Part shown: positions 18,896 through 62,946 of the stretch, piece by piece
How the letters are laid out: every line of letters begins with the position of its first letter
How positions within the stretch are numbered: position 1 is the first letter of the stretch
Source: Terriglobia bacterium
GTDB lineage: Bacteria > Acidobacteriota > Terriglobia > Bryobacterales > JACQDG01
DNA: 64,000 bases
Direction: 5' to 3'
NCBI GenBank assembly: GCA_041482115.1
Contig: JBGPDC010000003.1
Location: 4,695-68,694, forward strand
Position numbers and translations under genes: made by a program
The notes under the pieces: model-generated
The model's input: the letters and a program-made list of their open reading frames with translations, nothing else
Told to the model about the DNA's origin: nothing
Database searches by the model: none

Positions 18896-18972
18896 GCCGG
18901 TGTAGCTCAGCCAGGTAGAGCGAGGGTCTCATAATCCCTAGGTCGGCGGTTCGAGTCCGCCCGCCGGCACCA
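18896..18972 (+). tRNA. tRNA with CAT anticodon (elongator tRNA-Met, or tRNA-Ile2 if lysidine-modified), CCA encoded
   Basis: I folded the cloverleaf by hand. Acceptor GCCGGTG/CGCCGGC; D arm GCTC-AGCCAGGTA-GAGC; anticodon loop CT-CAT-AA (anticodon 18930-18932); T arm GGCGG-TTCGAGT-CCGCC; discriminator A plus CCA. G1-C72 is paired, so this is not an initiator. Confidence 0.9.
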
Positions 18973-51853: not shown

Positions 51854-52636
51854 CTACCGTCCCTTGAACCCCGGGCGGCGCTTCTCAAGAAACGCCTGGG
51901 TACCTTCCGCCTTGTCTTCGGTTGCGAAACACACGGTCTGGGCCAGCGTCTCGAGAATCAGCCCGGCGTGCTCCGGGGCATGGCTCGAGGCGTTGAGCAC
52001 CAGCTTCGCCATGCGCAGCGCCACGGGACCTCTCGTCAGCATCTTGTCAGCATAGCGCCGGGCCGTAGCCATGAGTTCGGCGGGCGGCACCACCGCCGCC
52101 ACCAGTCCCGCGGTGAGCGCCTGCCGGGCGTCGATCACCTCGCCGGTCAGGATCAGTTGTTTCGCAAGCGCCAGGCTGATCAGGCGCGGCAGCCGCTGCG
52201 TGCCCCCCGCCCCCGGGATGATCCCCAATCCCGTTTCCGGAAAGCCGAACTTGGCCGTTTCACTCGCCACGCGCAGGTCGCAGGCGATGGCCAGCTCACA
52301 CCCCCCGCCGAGGGCGTAGCCGTGAACGGCGGCGATCACCGGCCACGGGAAGTTCTCGACCGCCGTCATGAGCCGCTGGTTGATGGCGGCGAGCGCGTCC
52401 CGCTGGGTGCGCTGGTGGAGCTGCGCAATGTCGGCCCCCGATACGAAGGCCTGGTCGCCGGCCCCCCGCAGGATCACCACGCAACCCGCCTCCCCGGCCG
52501 CGGCCTCCGCTTCCCGGAGCGCCTCTTGCGCCTCGTTGACCGTCGGCAGGTCGAGCGCGTTGCGCTTCTCCGGACGGTTGAAGGTCAGCGTCCAGATGCG
52601 GCCATCCCTTTCGAGCTTGACGTTTTCGCCTGTCAT
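51854..52636 (-). CDS. Enoyl-CoA hydratase/isomerase (crotonase family)
   Basis: WTLTFNRPEKRNAL, FVSGADI, GYALGGGCELAIACD, GIIPGAGGTQRL. Confidence 0.9.
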   Translation of the reverse strand: MTGENVKLERDGRIWTLTFNRPEKRNALDLPTVNEAQEALREAEAAAGEAGCVVILRGAGDQAFVSGADIAQLHQRTQRDALAAINQRLMTAVENFPWPVIAAVHGYALGGGCELAIACDLRVASETAKFGFPETGLGIIPGAGGTQRLPRLISLALAKQLILTGEVIDARQALTAGLVAAVVPPAELMATARRYADKMLTRGPVALRMAKLVLNASSHAPEHAGLILETLAQTVCFATEDKAEGTQAFLEKRRPGFKGR

Positions 52637-52643
52637 GGTGGCT

Positions 52644-52985
52644 TCATCCCGCCAGTTTCTCCAGTCCCGTGGGGTCGAAGCCGAGTACGAGTTGCCTGCC
52701 CCGCACCGTGATGGGCCGCCGGATCAGGTTGGGGTGCGCGGCCATCAGCTCCAGGGCCTCCTTCCGGGACGGCGGCTTCTCCTTCATCTTCTTCTCCCGG
52801 TAGAGCTCATTCTTCGTGTTCAGGAACAGGGTGTAATCCCGCTCCCCGATGAGCCGGTCCAACTCCTCGGTGGAGAGCCCGCGGTTCAGGTCCTGCATCT
52901 CCAGTTCCGCGCCTTGTTCGAGCAAGAAACTTCTCGCTTGGCGGCACGTGGTTCAAGTGGGCTTCGTGTAAAACCGGATTTTCAT
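52644..52985 (-). CDS. ArsC/Spx/YffB-family thiol oxidoreductase-like protein with in-frame TGA at the first Cys of CxxC (candidate selenoprotein, UxxC; alternatively a pseudogene)
   Basis: My own translation from ATG at 52985: MKIRFYTKPT-TGA(52955-52953)-TTCRQARSFLLEQGAELEM... This continues in frame into the track ORF 52644..52925. The 113-aa total fits the family. ...HPNLIRRPITVRGRQLVLGF is the family C-terminal signature. Confidence 0.6.
52910..52943 (-). promoter_or_regulatory. Candidate bacterial SECIS-like hairpin downstream of the in-frame TGA
   Basis: Minus strand: CGCC-AAG-CGAG-AAGTTTCTTG-CTCG-AACAA-GGCG. The hairpin starts 10 nt after the UGA. The G/U-containing apical region lies about 24 nt from the UGA. 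Confidence 0.3.
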
Positions 52986-52995
52986 GGCCTCGATC

Positions 52996-53361
52996 TTAGG
53001 TGTAACGCGGTATGGCCGGGTCGATCTCCAGGCTCCAGCGATCGATCCCGCCGGCCAGGCTCTGCACGTCCTCCAGGCCCTGGTTCCGCAGCCAGGCCGC
53101 CACCCGCAGGCTGCGCACCCCATGGTGGCAGTAGACCACCAGCGGCTCCTCGATCCCTTCGAGCTGTGGCAGCGCGGCCGGAACGTCGCCCATCGGTATC
53201 AACTCGGCCCCTTCCAGGCGGGCCGTCTGGTACTCCCACGGCTCCCGGACATCGACCAGCCGCACCTTTTGCCCGGCTGCCTGCCGGCGCTGCAGCTCCT
53301 GGGGGGTGATCTCGAAGGAAAGGGGTTCCGGCACGGCGTCGCCCTCCGCCAGAAAGACCAA
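52996..53361 (-). CDS. Single-domain rhodanese-like sulfurtransferase
   Basis: VRLVDVREPWEY...VVYCHHGVRS (active-site Cys loop) ...LAGGIDRW. The start is uncertain: TTG at 53361 or GTG at 53334. Confidence 0.85.
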   Translation of the reverse strand: MVFLAEGDAVPEPLSFEITPQELQRRQAAGQKVRLVDVREPWEYQTARLEGAELIPMGDVPAALPQLEGIEEPLVVYCHHGVRSLRVAAWLRNQGLEDVQSLAGGIDRWSLEIDPAIPRYT

Positions 53362-53452: not shown

Positions 53453-53480
53453 GGAACTTTTTCAAATCCCCATGATCCAA
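53453..53480 (+). promoter_or_regulatory. ECF(RpoE)-type promoter candidate overlapping the annotated sigma-factor start
   Basis: GGAACTT (53453-53459), 16-nt spacer, TCCAA (53476-53480). If this promoter is used, the sigma gene would start at GTG 53511 rather than ATG 53472. Confidence 0.3.
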
Positions 53481-54098
53481 TCTGATAGCCCCGCCCAGGT
53501 AGACCAAGAGGTGGAGCTGGTTGACCGTGCCAGGAGTGGGGACGTAGCTGCCTTTACCGAACTGGTCAACCGTTACGAGCGAAATATATACCGTCTGGCC
53601 CGTCACATCACGCAGAACGACGAGGATGCCGAGGATGTGCTGCAAGAAGCGTTTCTCAAGGCGTTTGCGAATTTGAAGCAGTTTCAGGGTCAGTCGAAGT
53701 TTTACACATGGCTGGTACGAATCGCGGTCAACGAATCGCTCATGAAGCTGCGCCGCCGCAAGGCGGACAAGATCGTGTCGCTCGACGAGCGCCTCGAGAC
53801 CGAAGACGATTCCGTGCCGCGCGAGATCGCCGATTGGTCCGAGAACCCGGAGCAGCAGTACAGCCGCGCCGAGATGCAGGGTTTCCTGACCCGCGCCATC
53901 GACAGTTTGAGCCCCGGTTTTCGGACTGTTTTCCTGCTGCGCGACGTCGAAGAACTCTCGACGGAAGAAACCGCCAGCGCCCTCAACCTTTCCATCCCCG
54001 CCGTGAAATCGCGCCTCCTCCGGGCGCGGCTGCAGTTGCGGGAGAAACTGAATCGGATTTTTCGTAAACATGGGGACCACGCGCCAATTCACCTGTAA
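53472..54098 (+). CDS. ECF (group IV) sigma-70 family RNA polymerase sigma factor
   Basis: Region 2 (VELVDRARSGDVAAFTELVNRYERNIYRLARHITQNDEDAEDVLQEAFLKAF), region 4 (LRDVEELSTEETASALNLSIPAVKSRLLRAR). Confidence 0.9.
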   Translation: MIQSDSPAQVDQEVELVDRARSGDVAAFTELVNRYERNIYRLARHITQNDEDAEDVLQEAFLKAFANLKQFQGQSKFYTWLVRIAVNESLMKLRRRKADKIVSLDERLETEDDSVPREIADWSENPEQQYSRAEMQGFLTRAIDSLSPGFRTVFLLRDVEELSTEETASALNLSIPAVKSRLLRARLQLREKLNRIFRKHGDHAPIHL

Positions 54099-54330
54099 GC
54101 ATCTGCTCAAGGAGCTCACCGACTACCTCGACGGGTCGCTCGATCCCGAGATGCGGACGCAGCTCGAAGCCCACCTCGCCAAGTGCCCGAATTGCTGGGT
54201 AGTCTGCGATACGACGAAGAAGACGATCGAGGTTTTCAAGGGCCTCGACCCGTATCCGTTGCCGGACGAAGTCAAGGGCCGGCTGGTAAAAGCACTTCAG
54301 AAGCGCTGTTCCGAGTCCGGGAAGTCCTAG
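54070..54330 (+). CDS. Small soluble ZAS-type anti-sigma factor (zf-HC2)
   Basis: 86 aa with no TM segment. FTCKHLL...AHLAKCPNC contains the H-x3-C-x2-C zinc motif. Overlaps the sigma gene by 29 nt. Confidence 0.75.
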   Translation: MGTTRQFTCKHLLKELTDYLDGSLDPEMRTQLEAHLAKCPNCWVVCDTTKKTIEVFKGLDPYPLPDEVKGRLVKALQKRCSESGKS

Positions 54331-55610: not shown

Positions 55611-58325
55611 TCACTGGACGGGAACCCGGTAAATGTTGCGCTGCGTGGCAAACCGGGGGAAGGCATATATCGAGGGATTGGGTCCAGGAATCGCTTCCGG
55701 CTCCGGGATCAGCCGTGCTCCGGGCAAAGCAGCCAGCTCTTGCTTGGTTTGAAATCCGGAGGCCGGCAGGGGCGGCAACCCCTGGCCAGGCCGCAGCGGA
55801 ATTGCATAAACGGACCCCTGAAAGTTCAGATAGAGGAATTTTCCGTCCGGCGTCCAGTCCACATAGAGAGATTGCCAGCCCCGCTCAAAATTGGGGGCTT
55901 CGGCGCACGCGCCGCAGACCAGTGTGGGAGAACCGCCGCTGGCCGGATACACGACCACTGCGCCCCACGCTTTTTCGATCCCACCCTGCACCACTACCCA
56001 CTTTCCGTCCGACGAAACACTAGGTTGGCCGCCCGTAAAGTCTAGCTGCCGCCCCTGGTAGAGCGGCGCCGGTACTACCTTGGGTAATTCACTGCCATCT
56101 TCCTTGACGCGATAAAGGAAAATGTTTGTCTTCTCCCGGCCCACGAAGAGCACGTCGCCGCCTGCGCCGAAGAACGCCATGAGGCCGCCGCTGGCGGCGA
56201 GCTGCCGCGGCGCGGAACGCCGATCGAGCGCCGCGATCCACACCGGAGAGCGCCCCGCGTCGTCGGCCACGACAAACACCACGCGCTGGCCGTCGGCGGA
56301 GATCGTGTAGTGCTGCATTAGAAAGTCGGGCAGCAGCCGCTGGCGCTGCCCCGATTCCAGATCCGCGACCCAGAGTTCTCCGCTCATCCAGCTCCGCGCT
56401 CCCCCGGCGCGCAACAGGTAATATAGCTTTTTGCCATCGGGAGAGAGGGACGGAAGAAGGGCGAAGCCTTCTGAAGTGATCTGCCTGTCGCCGCGCGAAT
56501 CGTGGAACCACAACGTGCTCTGGCTCGTGCCGACCGCGGTGACGAAGGAGCGGCCGTCGGGAGCGAATGCGATTCCCTCTTCTTGCGTGGCGCCGGACGT
56601 GACCTGCTGGGGCGCCCCGTCGGGGAAGCGCTGCCGCCAGATGTGATACCCGTTTCCGGCATTGGCGGTGAAATACATCCACTTCCCATCGGGGGACCAG
56701 GCAGCGGCGGTACACTGCGCCGGCGCCGGGCCGACGGGGTTTCCAGGAGAGCTGCCGTCGAAAGGCACCAACCGGCAGGGCAGCCACGAGCTGGCGTCCA
56801 TCTCAGCCAGGAGGATCCACTTCCGATCGGGCGAGAGATAAGAGAAGTGGGCCATGCCGCTGTCCTCGGCGCGCGGCATGTAGATTGTGCGCTGCTGGGC
56901 GCGGCTCTCCGTCGAGGTGAAAATACCCATCTGCGCGCCCTTGCCGGTCAACTCCGAAAACAGGACCCGGGGCTGACCGGCGCCGGTCTCGATCCAGGTG
57001 AGCCCCATCGAGTTAGGTAAAAAGCGGCGCGGCTCCCCTCCCAGTACGGGCACCACCCAGGTGTCCAAAGCCCAATTCTCCATGGCCCCGTATGCGATGC
57101 GCGCCCCATCGGGCGAGAACTGGGGTCTAGTAACGGTCAAGTTCGGGCCGTTGTGTGTGAGCTGCAACGGCTCCCCGTCGGGCAGGAGCTTGACGTAAAT
57201 CTGCCCTGGACCGCCGATGGTACTCTCCCCCCGGATGAACGCCAGCATGCGGCCGTCCGGCGAGAGCGCCGGCGAGGTGGCGGAGTCGGCGAAGTTGGTG
57301 AGCTGCGTGTATTCGAGGCGCGCCGACGCGACGGGCGCCCGGGAGCGGAATTCCGTCAGCGCGCCGATGGCCAGCAGCCCCAGCAGGCCGCCCGCGGCGA
57401 TCCACCACCACTTCCAGCGCGTCGCGGGCGGGCCGGCGGGAACTACCGTGGCCGACGAGGTTTCCCCCAGCGGCTTTCGCGCCAGCCGGCGCAGGTCGAC
57501 GACCATCTCCCGCATGGACTGGTAGCGCTCCGCCGGGTCCTGTTCCAGGGCTTTTTCCACCACCGCCCGCAGCGCGCCCGGAACCTGTTCCGGCAGCGGC
57601 TGAGCCTCCCCGTTGATGATCGTCTGCAAGACTTCGAGATCCGTCGCGCCGGTGAACGGCCGATGCCCGGCCAGTAGTTCATACAGCACTACGCCGAAGG
57701 AAAAAATATCGCTGCGTGCGTCGGTCGGCCGGCCGGAGGCCTGCTCCGGTGACATGTAGGCGACTGTGCCCAGAATCACGCCAGGGCGTGTAGGTTCCCC
57801 CGCGTCCGTGCGGGTCTCGTCCCCCGGCGTGGCGTCTTCCGCCAGCTTGGCCAAGCCAAAATCCGCCAGCTTGGCGTAGCCGTTCTTAGCTACCAGTATG
57901 TTGGCGGGTTTGATGTCGCGGTGCGTCATCGCCGCCGCGTGCGCCGCGGCCAGCCCGTCGGCAACGCCTGCCAGCAATTCCACGATCTGCCGCCAGGTGC
58001 GCCTTTCGGCACGGGCCCAGTCTTTTAGCGTGCCGCCGTCGACAAACTCCGTGACCAGGTACTGCCGGCCCTCGAACTCACCCGCATCGTGGACTGTCAG
58101 AATGTGCGGATGGTTCAGCGAAGACGCCATTTGCGCCTCGCGCTGGAAGCGGCGCCGCGCGGCCGCGTCGGCCACCTCGCTCGAGAGGAGCTTGATGGCT
58201 ACCGGACGGTTGAGCTTGGTGTCGAGCGCCCGGTAGACAGTCCCCATGCCGCCCTTGCCGAGTAGGGACTCGAGGCGGTAGGGGCCGATCTGCGCGCCGG
58301 CGATACTCCCTGGGTCGGAGCTCAT
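55611..58325 (-). CDS. Ser/Thr protein kinase fused through one TM segment to TolB-like PD40/WD40 beta-propeller repeats
   Basis: Kinase motifs GKGGMGTVY...VAIK, HRDIKPANIL, DFGLAK, GTVAYMSPEQ. TM segment WWWIAAGGLLGLLAIGAL. Repeated SPDG(R/K)xxAF/Y units. Confidence 0.85.
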   Translation of the reverse strand: MSSDPGSIAGAQIGPYRLESLLGKGGMGTVYRALDTKLNRPVAIKLLSSEVADAAARRRFQREAQMASSLNHPHILTVHDAGEFEGRQYLVTEFVDGGTLKDWARAERRTWRQIVELLAGVADGLAAAHAAAMTHRDIKPANILVAKNGYAKLADFGLAKLAEDATPGDETRTDAGEPTRPGVILGTVAYMSPEQASGRPTDARSDIFSFGVVLYELLAGHRPFTGATDLEVLQTIINGEAQPLPEQVPGALRAVVEKALEQDPAERYQSMREMVVDLRRLARKPLGETSSATVVPAGPPATRWKWWWIAAGGLLGLLAIGALTEFRSRAPVASARLEYTQLTNFADSATSPALSPDGRMLAFIRGESTIGGPGQIYVKLLPDGEPLQLTHNGPNLTVTRPQFSPDGARIAYGAMENWALDTWVVPVLGGEPRRFLPNSMGLTWIETGAGQPRVLFSELTGKGAQMGIFTSTESRAQQRTIYMPRAEDSGMAHFSYLSPDRKWILLAEMDASSWLPCRLVPFDGSSPGNPVGPAPAQCTAAAWSPDGKWMYFTANAGNGYHIWRQRFPDGAPQQVTSGATQEEGIAFAPDGRSFVTAVGTSQSTLWFHDSRGDRQITSEGFALLPSLSPDGKKLYYLLRAGGARSWMSGELWVADLESGQRQRLLPDFLMQHYTISADGQRVVFVVADDAGRSPVWIAALDRRSAPRQLAASGGLMAFFGAGGDVLFVGREKTNIFLYRVKEDGSELPKVVPAPLYQGRQLDFTGGQPSVSSDGKWVVVQGGIEKAWGAVVVYPASGGSPTLVCGACAEAPNFERGWQSLYVDWTPDGKFLYLNFQGSVYAIPLRPGQGLPPLPASGFQTKQELAALPGARLIPEPEAIPGPNPSIYAFPRFATQRNIYRVPVQ

Positions 58326-58399: not shown

Positions 58400-59386
58400 C
58401 TACGCGACCGGCGACCCCACCCCCGCTGTGCCCCCCAGCGGCTGCGACTCGAAGAAGTTGCCCATCTGGCGAAACCGCTCGTAGCGGTGGGCTACCAACT
58501 CGGGACCCGAGAGCGGCGTGAGAAGGTCGAGAGCCGCTTCGAGCGCCTGCTTCAATAGCAAGGCCGCGCCATCCACGTCTTTGTGAGCCCCGCCTTCGGG
58601 CTCCGGCACGATTCCATCGATCAACTGCAGTTCCTTCAGATCCTGGGCCGTGAGCCGCAGCGCGGCCGCTGCCAGCTCGGCCCGTCCCGAATCCCGCCAG
58701 ATGATCGCGGCGCAGCTTTCCGGCGAGATCACGCTGTAGACGGCGTTCTCGAGCATCAGCACCGTGTTCCCCACGCCCAGCGCCAGCGCCCCGCCGCTGC
58801 CGCCCTCGCCAATGCAGGTCACCACGATCGGCGTTTCCAGGCGCGCCATCTCGCGCAGGTTATAAGCGATCGCTTCGGCCTGCCCGCGCTCCTCGGCGTC
58901 GATGCCCGGATACGCCCCGGGCGTGTCGAGAAACGCCAGCACCGGACGCCGGAATTTCGCCGCCACCTGCATCGCCCGCAGCGCCTTGCGGTATCCTTCC
59001 GGCTTCGACATGCCGAAGTTCCGGTAGAGCTTCTGCTTGGTGTCGCGGCCCTTCTGCTGCCCCACCAGCATCACCTCGCGCGTCCCGAGGCGCGCCATCC
59101 CGCAAATGATGGCCGGATCGTCCCCAAAGCGCCGGTCGCCGTGGATCTCGGCGAAGTTCGTGAAGATTCGCGAGACGTAGTCGAGGGTATGCGGCCGCTG
59201 GGGATGCCGCGCCAGCAGCACGCGCTCCCAGGCGGTGGAACCCTCGCCCAGGTGCTGCAGCGCCACCACCTCGGCGGCCATTTCCTCCAGCCGCGCCTCT
59301 ACCGCCGGATCGTGCTGCAAGGCCCGCAGCTCGGAGATCTCGCTCTCCAGTTGCGCGACCCGGTCCTTCAGTTCTTCAGGAGACAT
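58400..59386 (-). CDS. accA: Acetyl-CoA carboxylase carboxyltransferase alpha subunit
   Basis: ARHPQRPHTLDY, FGDDPAIICGMARL, FLDTPGAYPG, GEGGSGGALAL. ATG at 59386 (MSPEELKDRVAQLE) lies 2 nt after the dnaE stop. Confidence 0.95.
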   Translation of the reverse strand: MSPEELKDRVAQLESEISELRALQHDPAVEARLEEMAAEVVALQHLGEGSTAWERVLLARHPQRPHTLDYVSRIFTNFAEIHGDRRFGDDPAIICGMARLGTREVMLVGQQKGRDTKQKLYRNFGMSKPEGYRKALRAMQVAAKFRRPVLAFLDTPGAYPGIDAEERGQAEAIAYNLREMARLETPIVVTCIGEGGSGGALALGVGNTVLMLENAVYSVISPESCAAIIWRDSGRAELAAAALRLTAQDLKELQLIDGIVPEPEGGAHKDVDGAALLLKQALEAALDLLTPLSGPELVAHRYERFRQMGNFFESQPLGGTAGVGSPVA

Positions 59387-59388
59387 AT

Positions 59389-62300
59389 TTATACCGGTAC
59401 AATCTCGACGGCGCCCGGCCCCAGGATCTGCTCGGCCGCGGTGCAAAACTCGCGGTCGGCGCGCACGCGCAGCCCGGAATCGACTAGCGCCACGAAGTCC
59501 CCGCGCCGCTCGAGGCGGAAGCAGACATCGGTTTCGCCCGGCTTGTGCTGAAACAGCTCGGCCAGCCGGTCCGGCAGGTCGGTCTTCTCGCTCCCGTTCA
59601 GCCGCACCTTGACGAAGATCTGCCGCGGGACCCGAATGCGCGCCAGATCGAGCGGCGTGATGTCCGAGACGGCCACCTTGGGAGGGCCGTTCTCGTCGGG
59701 ACGCAGGCTGCCCCGCACCAGCAGCGCCGTATCCGGCTCGAGCATCGGGCGCAGCCCTTCATAGGAAGCCGCAAACACGAGCAGATCGATGTTGCCCGTG
59801 CGGTCTTCGAGCACCGCCGCCGCCCACGGCTTGCCCTCCCGGTTGCGCTTCACCGTCACGCTCGAGAGCATCCCGCACAGCGCCACCTCGGCGCCCTGCG
59901 CGAGCCCCTCGAGGGTCGAGCTGTCGTGCGTCGAGAGCTCGCGAATCTTCTCCTCGTAATCGTTCAGCGGGTGTCCGGTAACGTAAAAGCCCAGGACCTC
60001 TTTTTCGTGCTTCAACTTCTCCCGCTCCGTCCACGGCGCGACGTCCGGCAGCGTTTCGGCCGTCTGGCTCTCCTCGGGCGCCGGCGCGCCGAACAGCCCG
60101 TGCTGCCCCGATTCGCGGTCGCGTCCCGCCTTCTGGCCGTTCTCCATGGCGCGGTCGAGCGCGGCCACGAGCTGCGCGCGCGTGCCCCCCAGCGAATCCA
60201 TCGCGCCGCCCTTGATCGTGCTCTCGAGCGCCCGCTTGTTGAGCGGCCGCATGTCCACCTGCTCGCAGAATTGGAACAGCGAGTGGAAGCTGCCCACGCG
60301 CTCCCGCGCCTCCCGGATCGCGGCCACCGCCGACTGCCCCAGGTTCCGCACCGCCCCCAGTCCAAACCGGATCGCCTCCCCCGCCGGCGTGAAGCTCCAG
60401 TCGCTCGAATTCACGTCCGGCGGCAGGACCTTGATCCCCATCTCCCGGCACTCGTTGATGTACTTCACGACCTTGTCGGTGTTGCCGGTTTCCGAGCTGA
60501 GCAGCGCGGCGAAAAACTCCACCGGATAATGCGCCTTCAGGTACCCCGTGACGAAGGCCAGGTAGGCATAAGCCGCCGAGTGCGATTTGTTGAACCCGTA
60601 CCCGGCGAACTGCTCCATCAGGTCGAAAATCTTCTCGATCTTCTTGCGTGGGTGCCCCCGCTCGGCCCCGCCTTTCAGGAACCTCTCCCGCTGCTGGGCC
60701 ATCTCCTCGGGCTTCTTCTTGCCCATCGCCCGCCGCAGCAGGTCGGCCTCGCCCAGGCTGTAGCCCGCCAGGCGATTCGAGATCTGCATGACCTGTTCCT
60801 GATACAGGATCACCCCGTACGTTTCGGAGAGGATCTCTTGCAGCTCCGGCAGGTCGTAGGACACCGGCCGCCGCCCGTGCTTGCGGTCGATGAAGTCCGC
60901 GATCATCCCGCCCTGAATCGGCCCTGGACGGTACAGGGCGTTGAGCGCCGTGAGGTCTTCGAGACGCGTAGGCTGATAGCGGCGCAGCACGTCCCGCATG
61001 CCCTCGCTTTCAAACTGGAACACGCCGCTCGTGAGTCCTTTCGAAAACAGCGCGTAGGCCGCCGGATCGTCGAGTGGCAGATCCTCCACCACGATATCGA
61101 CGCCCCGGCCCGCCTTGATGAGCTTCAGCGCGTCGTCCACGACCGTCAGCGTCGTGAGGCCCAGGAAGTCCATCTTGAGAAGCGACAGCTTCTCGAGGCC
61201 GTTCATGTCGTACTGCGTGACAATTTCGTCGCGGTTGGTCTTATAGAGCGGAACCAGCTCCCGCAGCGGCTGCGGCGCGATCACCACCCCGGCGGCATGT
61301 ACCGAGGCGTTCCGCGACATGCCTTCCAGGCGCTGGGCGACCTCCATGACCTCGTTTACGCGCGGGTCTTTCTGCATCGCCTCGCGCAGCCGCGGCTCCT
61401 GCTCGATCGCCGTCTTCAGCTCGATGTTCAGCACGTTCGGCACCAGCTTGGTCAGCCGGTCCACGTCGGCGTAGGGCACGTCGAGCGCCCGCCCCACATC
61501 CTTGATCGCCGCCTTGGCGCCGAGCGTCGTGAAGGTGATGATCTGCGCCACCCGGTCCCGGCCGTACTTCTCCGTCACGTACCGGATCACCTCGCCCCGC
61601 CGGTTCATGCAGAAGTCGATGTCGATGTCGGGCATCGAAACCCGCTCCGGGTTGAGGAACCGCTCGAACAGCAGCTCATACTGCAGCGGGTCGAGGTCGG
61701 TGATCTGCATGGCGTAGCTGACGAGGCTCCCCGCCGCCGAGCCACGCCCCGGCCCCACCGGTATGTCCTTCGATTTAGCGAAGCGAATAAAATCCCAGAC
61801 GATAAGGAAATACCCAGAAAACTTCATCTTCTGAATCATCTGTATTTCCCGCTCCAGCCGCTCCACGTATTCCGCCAGATCGTGCTTCAGCCGCCCCTGC
61901 GCGCGCAGCGCCTCCAGGCGCGGACGCCGCTTCTCGAACCCCTCCCGCGCGACCCACTCGAAATAGCTGTCGGGCGAGTGCTCCTGCGGCACATCGAAGC
62001 GCGGGAAAGGTTCCTGCACCTTCTCGAGCTTCAACTGGCAGCGCTGGGCGATCTCCCACGTGCGGTCGAGCGCGTCCTCGCACTCGGCGAACAACTGCAG
62101 CATTTCCTCCCGCGACTTGATGTAAAAGTCGGGGTTCTCCCACCGCATCCGCGCCGGGTCGGACATCGTTTTTCCGGTCTGGATGCACAGCATGATCTCG
62201 TGCGCCCGGGCGTCCTCGCGGCGCAGGTAGTGGGAGTCGTTCGTGGCCACGAGCGGCACCCCCATTTCTTGCGACAGCCGGTAGACCTGCGGCAGCAGCC

Positions 62301-62853
62301 GCCGGTCCTTCTCGAGCCCGTGGTCCTGCACCTCCAGAAAAAAATTCCCCTTGCCGAAGATCTGCTTGTAATCCTCGGCGATCCGCCGGCCATCTTGATA
62401 ATCCTTCTCAAGCAGCGTCTCGTTGATCTCGCCTCGCAGGCAGGCCGAAAGCGCAATGAGACCCTTGCTATGCGCGGCGAGCAGGTCCTTGTCGATGCGC
62501 GGCTTGCGGTAGAACCCCTCCAGGTAGCCGCTCGATACGAGTTGAATCAGGTTGCGGTACCCCTCCTCGTTCTCGCACAGCAGCACGAGGTGGTGATACC
62601 GGTTCGAGTCGGTCTGGATGTGCCGGTCCTGCTGCGAAAGGTACACCTCGCAGCCGATCACCGGATGGATGCCGCGCTTCTGCGCCTCATTGTGAAACTG
62701 CACCGCGCCGAACAGGTTGCCGTGGTCGGTCATCGCCACCGCCGGCATCTTCTGCTGCTCGACGATCTCCATAAGCTGCGAGATTTCGCAGGCGCCGTCG
62801 AGCAGGGAATAATCGGTGTGGCAGTGCAGATGAACGAACGGGGGAGCCGCCAT
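59389..62853 (-). CDS. dnaE: DNA polymerase III alpha subunit
   Basis: The PHP domain start MAAPPFVHLHCHTDYSLLDGA gives ATG at 62853. Polymerase core ...GLLKMDFLGL..., OB fold at the C-terminus. Confidence 0.95.
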   Translation of the reverse strand: MAAPPFVHLHCHTDYSLLDGACEISQLMEIVEQQKMPAVAMTDHGNLFGAVQFHNEAQKRGIHPVIGCEVYLSQQDRHIQTDSNRYHHLVLLCENEEGYRNLIQLVSSGYLEGFYRKPRIDKDLLAAHSKGLIALSACLRGEINETLLEKDYQDGRRIAEDYKQIFGKGNFFLEVQDHGLEKDRRLLPQVYRLSQEMGVPLVATNDSHYLRREDARAHEIMLCIQTGKTMSDPARMRWENPDFYIKSREEMLQLFAECEDALDRTWEIAQRCQLKLEKVQEPFPRFDVPQEHSPDSYFEWVAREGFEKRRPRLEALRAQGRLKHDLAEYVERLEREIQMIQKMKFSGYFLIVWDFIRFAKSKDIPVGPGRGSAAGSLVSYAMQITDLDPLQYELLFERFLNPERVSMPDIDIDFCMNRRGEVIRYVTEKYGRDRVAQIITFTTLGAKAAIKDVGRALDVPYADVDRLTKLVPNVLNIELKTAIEQEPRLREAMQKDPRVNEVMEVAQRLEGMSRNASVHAAGVVIAPQPLRELVPLYKTNRDEIVTQYDMNGLEKLSLLKMDFLGLTTLTVVDDALKLIKAGRGVDIVVEDLPLDDPAAYALFSKGLTSGVFQFESEGMRDVLRRYQPTRLEDLTALNALYRPGPIQGGMIADFIDRKHGRRPVSYDLPELQEILSETYGVILYQEQVMQISNRLAGYSLGEADLLRRAMGKKKPEEMAQQRERFLKGGAERGHPRKKIEKIFDLMEQFAGYGFNKSHSAAYAYLAFVTGYLKAHYPVEFFAALLSSETGNTDKVVKYINECREMGIKVLPPDVNSSDWSFTPAGEAIRFGLGAVRNLGQSAVAAIREARERVGSFHSLFQFCEQVDMRPLNKRALESTIKGGAMDSLGGTRAQLVAALDRAMENGQKAGRDRESGQHGLFGAPAPEESQTAETLPDVAPWTEREKLKHEKEVLGFYVTGHPLNDYEEKIRELSTHDSSTLEGLAQGAEVALCGMLSSVTVKRNREGKPWAAAVLEDRTGNIDLLVFAASYEGLRPMLEPDTALLVRGSLRPDENGPPKVAVSDITPLDLARIRVPRQIFVKVRLNGSEKTDLPDRLAELFQHKPGETDVCFRLERRGDFVALVDSGLRVRADREFCTAAEQILGPGAVEIVPV

Positions 62854-62900
62854 CGGAGAGCTACAGTGTAGCATTGCCGGGCACCGCGTGACAGCTCGGA

Positions 62901-62946
62901 TTGACACCGCGCTCCAAATGTCCTACTATCAAGTAAGAATAGTAGG
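62901..62946 (+). promoter_or_regulatory. Near-consensus sigma70 promoter with overlapping palindromic operator upstream of vapB
   Basis: TTGACA (62901-62906), 17-nt spacer, TACTAT (62924-62929). Perfect 8-bp inverted repeat CCTACTAT (62922-62929) / ATAGTAGG (62939-62946). Confidence 0.5.

Follow-up and report, generated by a model that had tools for sequence, protein, structure and literature searches.

Is an in-frame TGA at the catalytic cysteine position of a small thiol-oxidoreductase gene a stop, a lesion, or a codon for selenocysteine (Sec)? The question is raised by a gene of the ArsC/Spx family on the minus strand of a 64,000-nucleotide (nt) stretch of DNA from a Terriglobia bacterium (Acidobacteriota; assembly GCA_041482115.1, contig JBGPDC010000003.1, positions 4,695 to 68,694 of the forward strand), which in its full length is referred to as the window. 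A preliminary description, made from the letters of the window alone, had proposed a UxxC selenoprotein that was missed by open reading frame (ORF) calling. This proposal was supported by the conservation of the TGA, by a covarying downstream hairpin specific to TGA-containing genes, and by the split of the family into Sec and cysteine (Cys) forms. Judged from these sequence comparisons, the gene is very probably a genuine selenoprotein gene. The best explanation as a whole, in which the UGA at 52955-52953 is read as Sec via a Sec insertion sequence (SECIS) hairpin to yield a 113-residue UxxC product, is nearly as probable.

The structure of the gene is established. Translated from the ATG at 52985, the minus strand reads MKIRFYTKPT, TGA, and TTCRQARSFLLEQ... 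in one frame, and the next stop is reached only at 52646-52644; the complete translation of 52985-52644 resumes after the TGA as TTCRQARSFLLEQGAELEM...GLEKLAG and contains this single internal TGA in addition to the terminal one. The coding sequence (CDS) comprises 113 codons and a stop, with Sec as residue 11 and U11-T-T-C14 as the redox motif, and the same architecture recurs in 119 genome loci among the matches listed. The mechanical ORF list contains only the segment 52644-52925, 93 amino acids (aa) long and opening on a TTG that is not the real start of the gene. All coordinates of this layout given in the preliminary description, including those of the truncated ORF track, proved correct. 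The distances to both neighbors were also confirmed on the sequence: 10 nt separate the TAA of an upstream rhodanese gene (52998-52996) from the ATG, and the ATG of an enoyl-CoA hydratase gene (52636) lies 7 nt past the stop. A GAGG at 52991-52988, 2 nt 5′ of the ATG, is a possible ribosome-binding site with weak spacing. Because the gene itself ends in an ordinary TGA stop, a global reassignment of UGA is excluded in this organism. The coordinates of the features are compiled in Table 1.

Conservation of the UGA is likewise established. Three public contigs (NCBI GCA_041488195.1, JGI 3300052990, and Logan SRR29604914), reached via the neighboring hydratase protein, carry the ArsC-like gene with 100% identity including the TGA, so that together with the window four assemblies agree. 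The three best protein-database matches (90-94% identity) were truncated calls of 93 or 84 aa. In the contigs of these matches (L001-L004), the DNA is 88.6-95.3% identical to the window gene, the TGA is kept, and the MKIRFYTKPT peptide is intact; the ten upstream codons vary synonymously only (CGG/CGT/CGC, ACG/ACT, CCC/CCG). Public databases list the gene as ‘arsenate reductase-like glutaredoxin family protein’ of 84 or 93 aa, in L005 (GCA_041488195.1, 9739-9993), L006 (9712-9993), and the entries P0001, P0002, and P0004. Public annotation misses the selenoprotein systematically.

To cover more distant relatives, one genome per species was scanned with the degenerate DNA pattern K-P-x-TGA-x-x-C-R-x-A ... 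E-x-Y-x4-M-K, which gave at least 119 loci, each from a different species. All 119 listed loci encode full-length homologues with U at the site, conserved N-terminal strands, and no other disruptions. Among the matches listed, the motif is K-P-[TSNPA]-U-x-x-C-R, mostly KPTUT[TS]CRKA, and protein identity to the window protein ranges from 52 to 64%. These carriers are mostly Acidobacteriota (Bryobacterales, Solibacteraceae, Acidoferrales/Acidiferrales, Polarisedimenticolia, gp2, and gp13) and include one isolate, Paludibaculum fermentans T20B24. TGA forms were also seen in metagenome-assembled genomes (MAGs) labeled Bacillota (L030), Arcobacter (L045), Cybelea (L052), and Limnocylindrales (L079 and L084), which could reflect horizontal transfer or mis-binning. 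As a control, metagenomes were scanned with TGY substituted for TGA in the otherwise unchanged pattern, which gave 120 loci with 113 distinct Cys-form sequences. Such TGC/TGT homologues are abundant and interleaved with the TGA forms, with up to 89% protein identity between the two; the orthologues thus split as expected of a Sec/Cys pair. The recurrence of the same TGA across assemblies, in diverged copies, and in at least 119 species rules out both a sequencing error and a pseudogene.

A hairpin downstream of the UGA had been noted in the preliminary description, with a G/U-containing apex about 24 nt from the UGA. The hairpin exists and this distance was estimated correctly, but conservation does not extend to the proposed CGAG/CTCG register and CGCC/GGCG outer stem. 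In the window, the 5′ arm (52938-52932, AGCGAGA) pairs with the 3′ arm (52927-52921, UCUUGCU) around the loop AGUU (52931-52928), which places the conserved G-U at 52930-52929 and leaves a spacer of 14 nt to the UGA. The outer stem was rejected as a part of the signal: it is broken by a C to A change in the nearest relatives, and the mix of GGC, GGA, GGT, and GGG at its Gly codon is equal in the TGA and Cys sets.

For comparative folding, a segment of 30 nt (+15 to +44 relative to the UGA) was analyzed in 122 TGA and 113 Cys forms. A hairpin with the G-U in its loop at +25/+26 was obtained for 120 of the 122 TGA forms, mostly with uninterrupted stems of 6-8 base pairs (bp), whereas 38 of the 113 Cys forms gave any hairpin across the site, with shorter stems. 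The mean minimum free energy (MFE) was −8.87 kcal/mol for TGA versus −5.42 kcal/mol for Cys forms (Mann-Whitney p = 8e-23). The loop sequences of the TGA forms were GGUC (48), GUU (21), AGUUUG (20), AGUU (9, including the window), AGUUGG (9), and a few others. The codon usage follows the same division. Among the 122 TGA forms, codon 19 is AGU (69) or GGU (48) in 117 cases and AGC or GGC in none, although the window has a G+C content of 65%; in the Cys forms it is GCC, AAG, GCG, or others. The Arg/Lys and Leu codons on either side favor AGA/AGG/AAG and UUG/CUU, a bias confined to the TGA forms. The remaining five TGA forms (L026, L032, L036, L041, and L097) lack the AGU/GGU codon and have other small hairpins, e.g. 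AAGCGC-GGACG-GCGCUU or one with a CGGG loop; their loops are G-rich, without a G-U at +25/+26, and they may represent a second SECIS variant.

When the codons of all TGA forms were aligned without gaps, RNAalifold found no consensus structure. Three registers occur for the 3′ arm of the hairpin, with 4, 5, or 6 nt in the loop, and the loops were therefore hand-padded before base pairs were counted. The resulting 7-bp helix was paired in 87.7% of cells, compared with at most 57% in slid registers, and five of its seven pairs were changed on both sides; compensatory (two-sided) cells numbered 131 versus 38.9 ± 11.7 in shuffled alignments, and none of 500 shuffles reached the observed value, with the qualification that the loop length (4-6 nt) was picked for each sequence to maximize pairing, which inflates the paired fraction and the pair counts somewhat. 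The closest Sec/Cys pairs differ by GGU to GGC or AGU to AGC, with the stem broken in the Cys member. In one such pair (L100, Sec, and L201, Cys; 89% protein identity) GCAAGAGGUCUCUUGC is replaced by GCAAAGGGCCUCUUGC, and in another (L123, Sec, and L180, Cys; 85% protein identity) AGU is replaced by AGC. As the stem is lost together with Sec in these closest pairs, the hairpin follows the TGA and not the protein lineage. It is conserved, covarying, and specific to the TGA forms.

In these properties the predicted hairpin matches a bacterial SECIS. The GGUC tetraloop of 48 family members is presumably the same as the loop sequence of the Escherichia coli fdhF element. The minimal fdhF SECIS is a 17-nt stem-loop located 11 nt from the UGA, in which SelB contacts the loop G23 and the bulged U17 (PMC8659212). 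As in fdhF, the hairpin described here lies within the CDS just 3′ of the UGA, and the G-U of the apical loop is constant while the stem covaries. Unlike in fdhF, the spacer is 14 nt instead of 11 nt, the window loop is AGUU, and the G-U is found at nt 26-27 counted from the U of the UGA instead of nt 23-24, the place of the SelB-contacting G23/U24 (PMC8659212), and thus one codon further downstream.

For family searches, Cys was substituted for the TGA in the 113-aa protein. The membership in the ArsC/Spx family that had been proposed by eye was borne out by a match to Pfam ArsC (PF03960) over residues 6-109 and profile positions 1-77 of 79 (E = 8e-18; 64.9 bits, cutoff 24). The top-scoring NCBIfam model was TIGR01617 (Spx/MgsR, ‘arsC_related’; residues 3-110), as for all 30 family members tested; the models for true arsenate reductases (TIGR00014; 45.7 bits, cutoff 106) and YffB-type proteins (NF008107; 42 bits, cutoff 121) scored lower. 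A single-sequence search gave 3GKX, 2M46, Spx, and YffB as nearest solved structures (E = 1e-11 to 1e-8), and a profile built from 30 family members was nearest to the Spx structures (E = 1.5e-21), with R773 ArsC at about 1e-8. The TGA aligns with Cys10 of Spx and Cys12 of R773 ArsC, and all full-length homologues inspected have the leading Cys of their CxxC motif at this site, a position that had also been recognized in the preliminary description.

Classical glutaredoxin-dependent arsenate reductases are marked by Cys12 together with the triad Arg60/Arg94/Arg107 (PMC3169414). In the profile alignment to R773 ArsC (TIGR00014; PDB 1I9D), U11, R15, and R90 correspond to the catalytic Cys12, Arg16, and Arg94, respectively. 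However, Arg60 is opposite the invariant Asn56, Arg107 falls outside the alignment, and a CxxS motif there contrasts with UxxC here. Since in addition the TIGR00014 score is far below cutoff, the predicted protein is not a classical arsenate reductase. With Spx/MgsR (TIGR01617; PDB 1Z3E, 3GFK, and 6GHB) it shares the position of the CxxC motif and the HP(G/N)L(L/I)RRPI motif. In contrast to Spx, it has Asp50, nearly invariant across the family, at the position of Gly52, and it ends at residue 113 versus 131-132, so that the C-terminal tail of about 18 residues is absent; host (not a Firmicute) and rhodanese partner differ as well. We take Gly52 and the C-terminal tail to be the determinants of RNA polymerase binding in Spx, with Gly52 presumably needed for binding the C-terminal domain of the alpha subunit. 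With an incomplete triad, Gly52 replaced by Asp, and no tail, the protein belongs to neither class, ArsC nor demonstrable Spx, and it is probably not an Spx. It is assigned here, from its predicted sequence, to an uncharacterized CxxC/UxxC clade of thioredoxin-fold oxidoreductases within the ArsC/Spx/YffB superfamily, as a UxxC member.

A number of observations weigh against the selenoprotein reading or against parts of it. ARAGORN and Rfam searches of the 64-kb window gave a tRNA-Met only and no tRNA-Sec, the rest of the genome lying outside this search, and ARAGORN run on 247 sequences (the window and L001-L246, 1.64 Mb) found two tRNAs and no tRNA-Sec. Neither selA nor selB nor selD was seen in the window or the 246 related loci, where tblastn with E. 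coli SelD and SelA gave no match, a result that says nothing on the rest of the genome. No Rfam family matched the hairpin in a scan of the window or in a permissive scan of the region, which returned two chance matches only (E ~3-4). Taken alone, the window hairpin is unexceptional (MFE −19.7 kcal/mol, z = −1.41), its 5′ arm has no bulged U such as U17 of fdhF, and the pair counts of the family carry the upward bias described above. On the protein side, the window protein narrowly misses the TIGR01617 cutoff (72.3 versus 75.05 bits). It also scores 30 bits (cutoff 85) with NF041106 ‘ArsC family (seleno)protein’, a model of the same superfamily that is meant to name Sec-containing ArsC relatives and whose best E value among the 30 tested family members was 8.9e-11; with such low scores across the clade, the clade is outside the reach of the model, and public annotations truncate the gene. 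Finally, the functional link to the rhodanese is a proposal made from gene adjacency.

The two tRNAs found in the 1.64 Mb were the tRNA-Met of the window (18896-18972) and one tRNA-Leu; this low density is probably explained by the loci representing largely one syntenic region. A crude scan of the window for other genes with an in-frame TGA, based on G+C at third codon positions (GC3), found none, its sole match being two adjacent genes that share a frame. A scan of all loci for Sec/Cys pairs revealed no second selenoprotein gene, only off-frame noise and one ordinary stop codon. Three selenoprotein families with four selenoproteins are on record for Acidobacteria (PMC1794560).

How do other readings of the UGA compare? 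A lone in-frame stop in an otherwise intact gene is what an erroneous base call or a newly arisen nonsense mutation would leave. This reading is already refuted by the comparative data and retains practically no probability: the TGA is identical in four independent assemblies, which excludes the sequencing error considered in the preliminary description, and it occupies the same codon in at least 119 species without the varied disruptions of a decaying gene. Moreover, the TGA is kept in three diverged metagenome copies in which nearby changes are synonymous only, both flanks are conserved as protein, and a covarying hairpin goes with the TGA specifically. An artefact from one contaminant is contradicted by the related loci, which share only 52-64% protein identity with the window protein. 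Alternatively, the UGA might be a true stop that ends a 10-residue leader peptide, with a separate start at TTG 52925 or ATG 52898 and the hairpin coupling or regulating translation. The 93-aa and 84-aa products of public annotations and the location of the TTG within the hairpin would fit such an arrangement, but the 10 codons ahead of the TGA and the 9 that separate it from the TTG are conserved as protein, and in at least 119 species they correspond by homology to strand beta-1 and to the helix with the CxxC motif in full-length homologues of the Cys form. A truncated product would be left without the redox centre and with an incomplete thioredoxin fold, and the Pfam and TIGR01617 alignments begin at residues 3-6; we consider a true stop highly improbable. 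Only a trace more credible is a recoding of the UGA to Cys, Ser, or another residue, by an allo-tRNA(UCA) or by a selC*-type tRNA-Cys acting via a SelB paralogue, to give a CxxC or SxxC protein. Allo-tRNAs with suppressor potential have been reported in Acidobacteria, and a selC* tRNA-Cys together with a SelB paralogue in other phyla (PMC5389517), and no Sec machinery was found in the window or the related loci. However, selC* is known from Firmicutes, Thermodesulfobacteria, Nitrospirae, and Proteobacteria, not from Acidobacteria (PMC5389517), the site is the classic redox position at which Sec and Cys alternate, and the hairpin bears the G-U loop signature of SelB-type elements, with GGUC in 48 sequences. 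A general suppressor would have no need of a gene-specific hairpin, and UGA also terminates the ArsC-like gene.

A different kind of alternative accepts Sec but takes the product as a redox-sensing regulator of the Spx/MgsR type that acts on RNA polymerase, not as an enzyme. It is suggested by TIGR01617 as top NCBIfam model, by the Spx structures as nearest to the family profile, and by a CxxC-type motif as in Spx. The score below the TIGR01617 cutoff, the exchange of Gly52 for Asp50, and the missing tail argue against it, as does the conserved rhodanese partner, which suggests sulfur chemistry; the characterized Spx regulators come from Firmicutes (PMC7496741). The regulator is given a small chance, somewhat above that of non-Sec recoding. 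A Sec-containing, Spx-like redox sensor that binds RNA polymerase, or in a milder variant a hitherto undescribed selenol-based relay of sulfane sulfur with the rhodanese that is widespread in soil Acidobacteriota, is a speculative proposal with an equally small chance of being correct. We know of no selenoprotein that is a transcription regulator.

For the preferred reading, a selenoprotein enzyme, the following course of events is proposed. Translation would begin at AUG 52985. With UGA 52955-52953 in the A site, the hairpin 14 nt downstream (52938-52921) would be exposed at the mRNA entrance and present the G-U of its loop. We infer that, as a bacterial SECIS, it would recruit SelB-GTP-Sec-tRNASec, so that Sec would be inserted and termination avoided. 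The product would be a 113-residue thioredoxin-fold protein in which U11-x-x-C14 cycles between the selenol/thiol and the selenenylsulfide state. Thioredoxin serves single-domain rhodaneses, and the two genes adjoin; by analogy, the protein may act as selenol/thiol reductant of, or sulfane-sulfur acceptor for, the probably co-transcribed rhodanese, a role for which the chances appear about even.

Of 127 TGA loci, 82 have the rhodanese gene immediately 5′ of the ArsC-like gene in the same orientation, as do 71 of 120 Cys loci, which gives at least 153 of 247 in all; as many contigs are short, these counts are lower bounds. This pairing, from which the two genes are probably co-transcribed, is the only tight association of the ArsC-like gene and is independent of Sec or Cys at the site. 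The active-site loop of the rhodanese is always CHHG[MVI]RS across the loci, with Cys and never TGA. A homologue of the hydratase is found downstream of the ArsC-like gene only in close relatives of the window. In most other genomes it is placed upstream, in about 85 loci at a distance of some 1.6 kb and in the same orientation; its differing position points to local rearrangement. A functional link to the hydratase was rejected, as the gene recurs nearby but in variable order and the association is loose. Genes resembling those for a 3-hydroxyacyl-CoA dehydrogenase, a macro-domain protein, and CoA-transferase subunits, judged by sequence alone, occur nearby in subsets of loci. The ECF sigma factor and zf-HC2 anti-sigma factor genes on the opposite strand were dismissed as regulators of the ArsC-like gene, since they are adjacent in few loci only. 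Further along the window, a kinase gene is followed by accA and dnaE, and just past dnaE a pair of a PIN-domain toxin and a MazE-type antitoxin was seen at 896-1547 of L247, a JGI contig that matches the window without difference in the ArsC-like gene and the neighboring genes checked. The AccA protein of the window shares 65-78% identity with proteins named Bryobacterales, Bryobacteraceae, or Acidobacteria, which places the window in that phylum.

Table 1. Positions of the predicted selenoprotein gene, its elements, and neighboring genes in the window.
Feature	Position	Strand	Basis or remark
Full CDS, predicted ArsC/Spx-like selenoprotein	52644..52985	minus	Translation; Pfam ArsC residues 6-109, TIGR01617 residues 3-110
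ATG start codon	52983..52985	minus	Sequence; N-terminal peptide kept in L001-L004
In-frame TGA, read as Sec (proposed), first CxxC position	52953..52955	minus	Cys in aligned homologues; conserved
SECIS-like hairpin	52921..52938	minus	Fold, codon bias, covariation; within codons 17-22 (A-R-S-F-L-L)
TTG start of the 93-aa mechanical ORF	52923..52925	minus	Inside 3′ arm of hairpin
Terminator of the ArsC-like gene, also TGA	52644..52646	minus	Sequence and translation
Single-domain rhodanese, active-site loop CHHGVRS	52996..53361	minus	Pfam PF00581, E 4.5e-17
Enoyl-CoA hydratase/isomerase family gene	51854..52636	minus	Pfam ECH_1, E 4e-61
ECF sigma factor	53472-54098	plus	Divergent from rhodanese/ArsC-like operon
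zf-HC2 (ZAS-type) anti-sigma factor	54070-54330	plus	Overlaps ECF sigma gene by 29 nt
904-aa Ser/Thr protein kinase fused to PD40/Tricorn-type beta-propeller repeats	55611-58325	minus	
accA	58400-59446		
dnaE	59389-62907		

Recognition of the clade would correct many annotations of 84-93 aa ORFs in public MAGs and metagenomes and would mark selenium as relevant for abundant soil bacteria. Earlier surveys had assigned only a handful of selenoproteins to Acidobacteria, and at least 119 genomes at species level, almost all from this phylum, now show the TGA form. As a clearly delimited SECIS variant, the hairpin set could serve as the seed of a covariance model, and the interleaved Sec and Cys forms with matched gain or loss of the hairpin offer a clean natural data set on Sec/Cys exchange. 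The understanding of the selenoprotein mechanism is left unchanged by the finding.

As a kind, UxxC ArsC/Spx-like selenoproteins are already known from predictions in the surveys of 2006-2008, as the preliminary description had suggested. Predicted ArsC-like selenoproteins are on record for Desulfotalea and Desulfuromonas (Zhang et al. 2006, PMC1794560), the Global Ocean Sampling (GOS) survey lists ‘Arsenate reductase (ArsC) 1, UxxS’ and ‘Arsenate reductase 2, cd03032, UxxC’ (Zhang and Gladyshev 2008, PMC2398784), and a review from 2022 includes an ‘arsenate reductase-like protein, COG1393, UxxC’ (PMC9312934). Compared by published description, the UxxC motif and the Spx-like profile of the clade described here would fit the GOS ‘Arsenate reductase 2’. 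The apparently new aspects are the mostly acidobacterial clade in at least 119 species, its SECIS variant, the pairing with a rhodanese, and the truncation of the gene by annotation. The predicted ArsC-like and ‘Arsenate reductase 2’ (cd03032, ArsC_Spx) selenoproteins, all of them computational predictions, have the same fold, Sec in place of the first Cys of the N-terminal CxxC motif, and Cys homologues that outnumber the Sec forms. Unlike these proteins, which were found in Deltaproteobacteria and ocean metagenomes, those described here derive mostly from soil and freshwater Acidobacteriota and are usually paired with a rhodanese.

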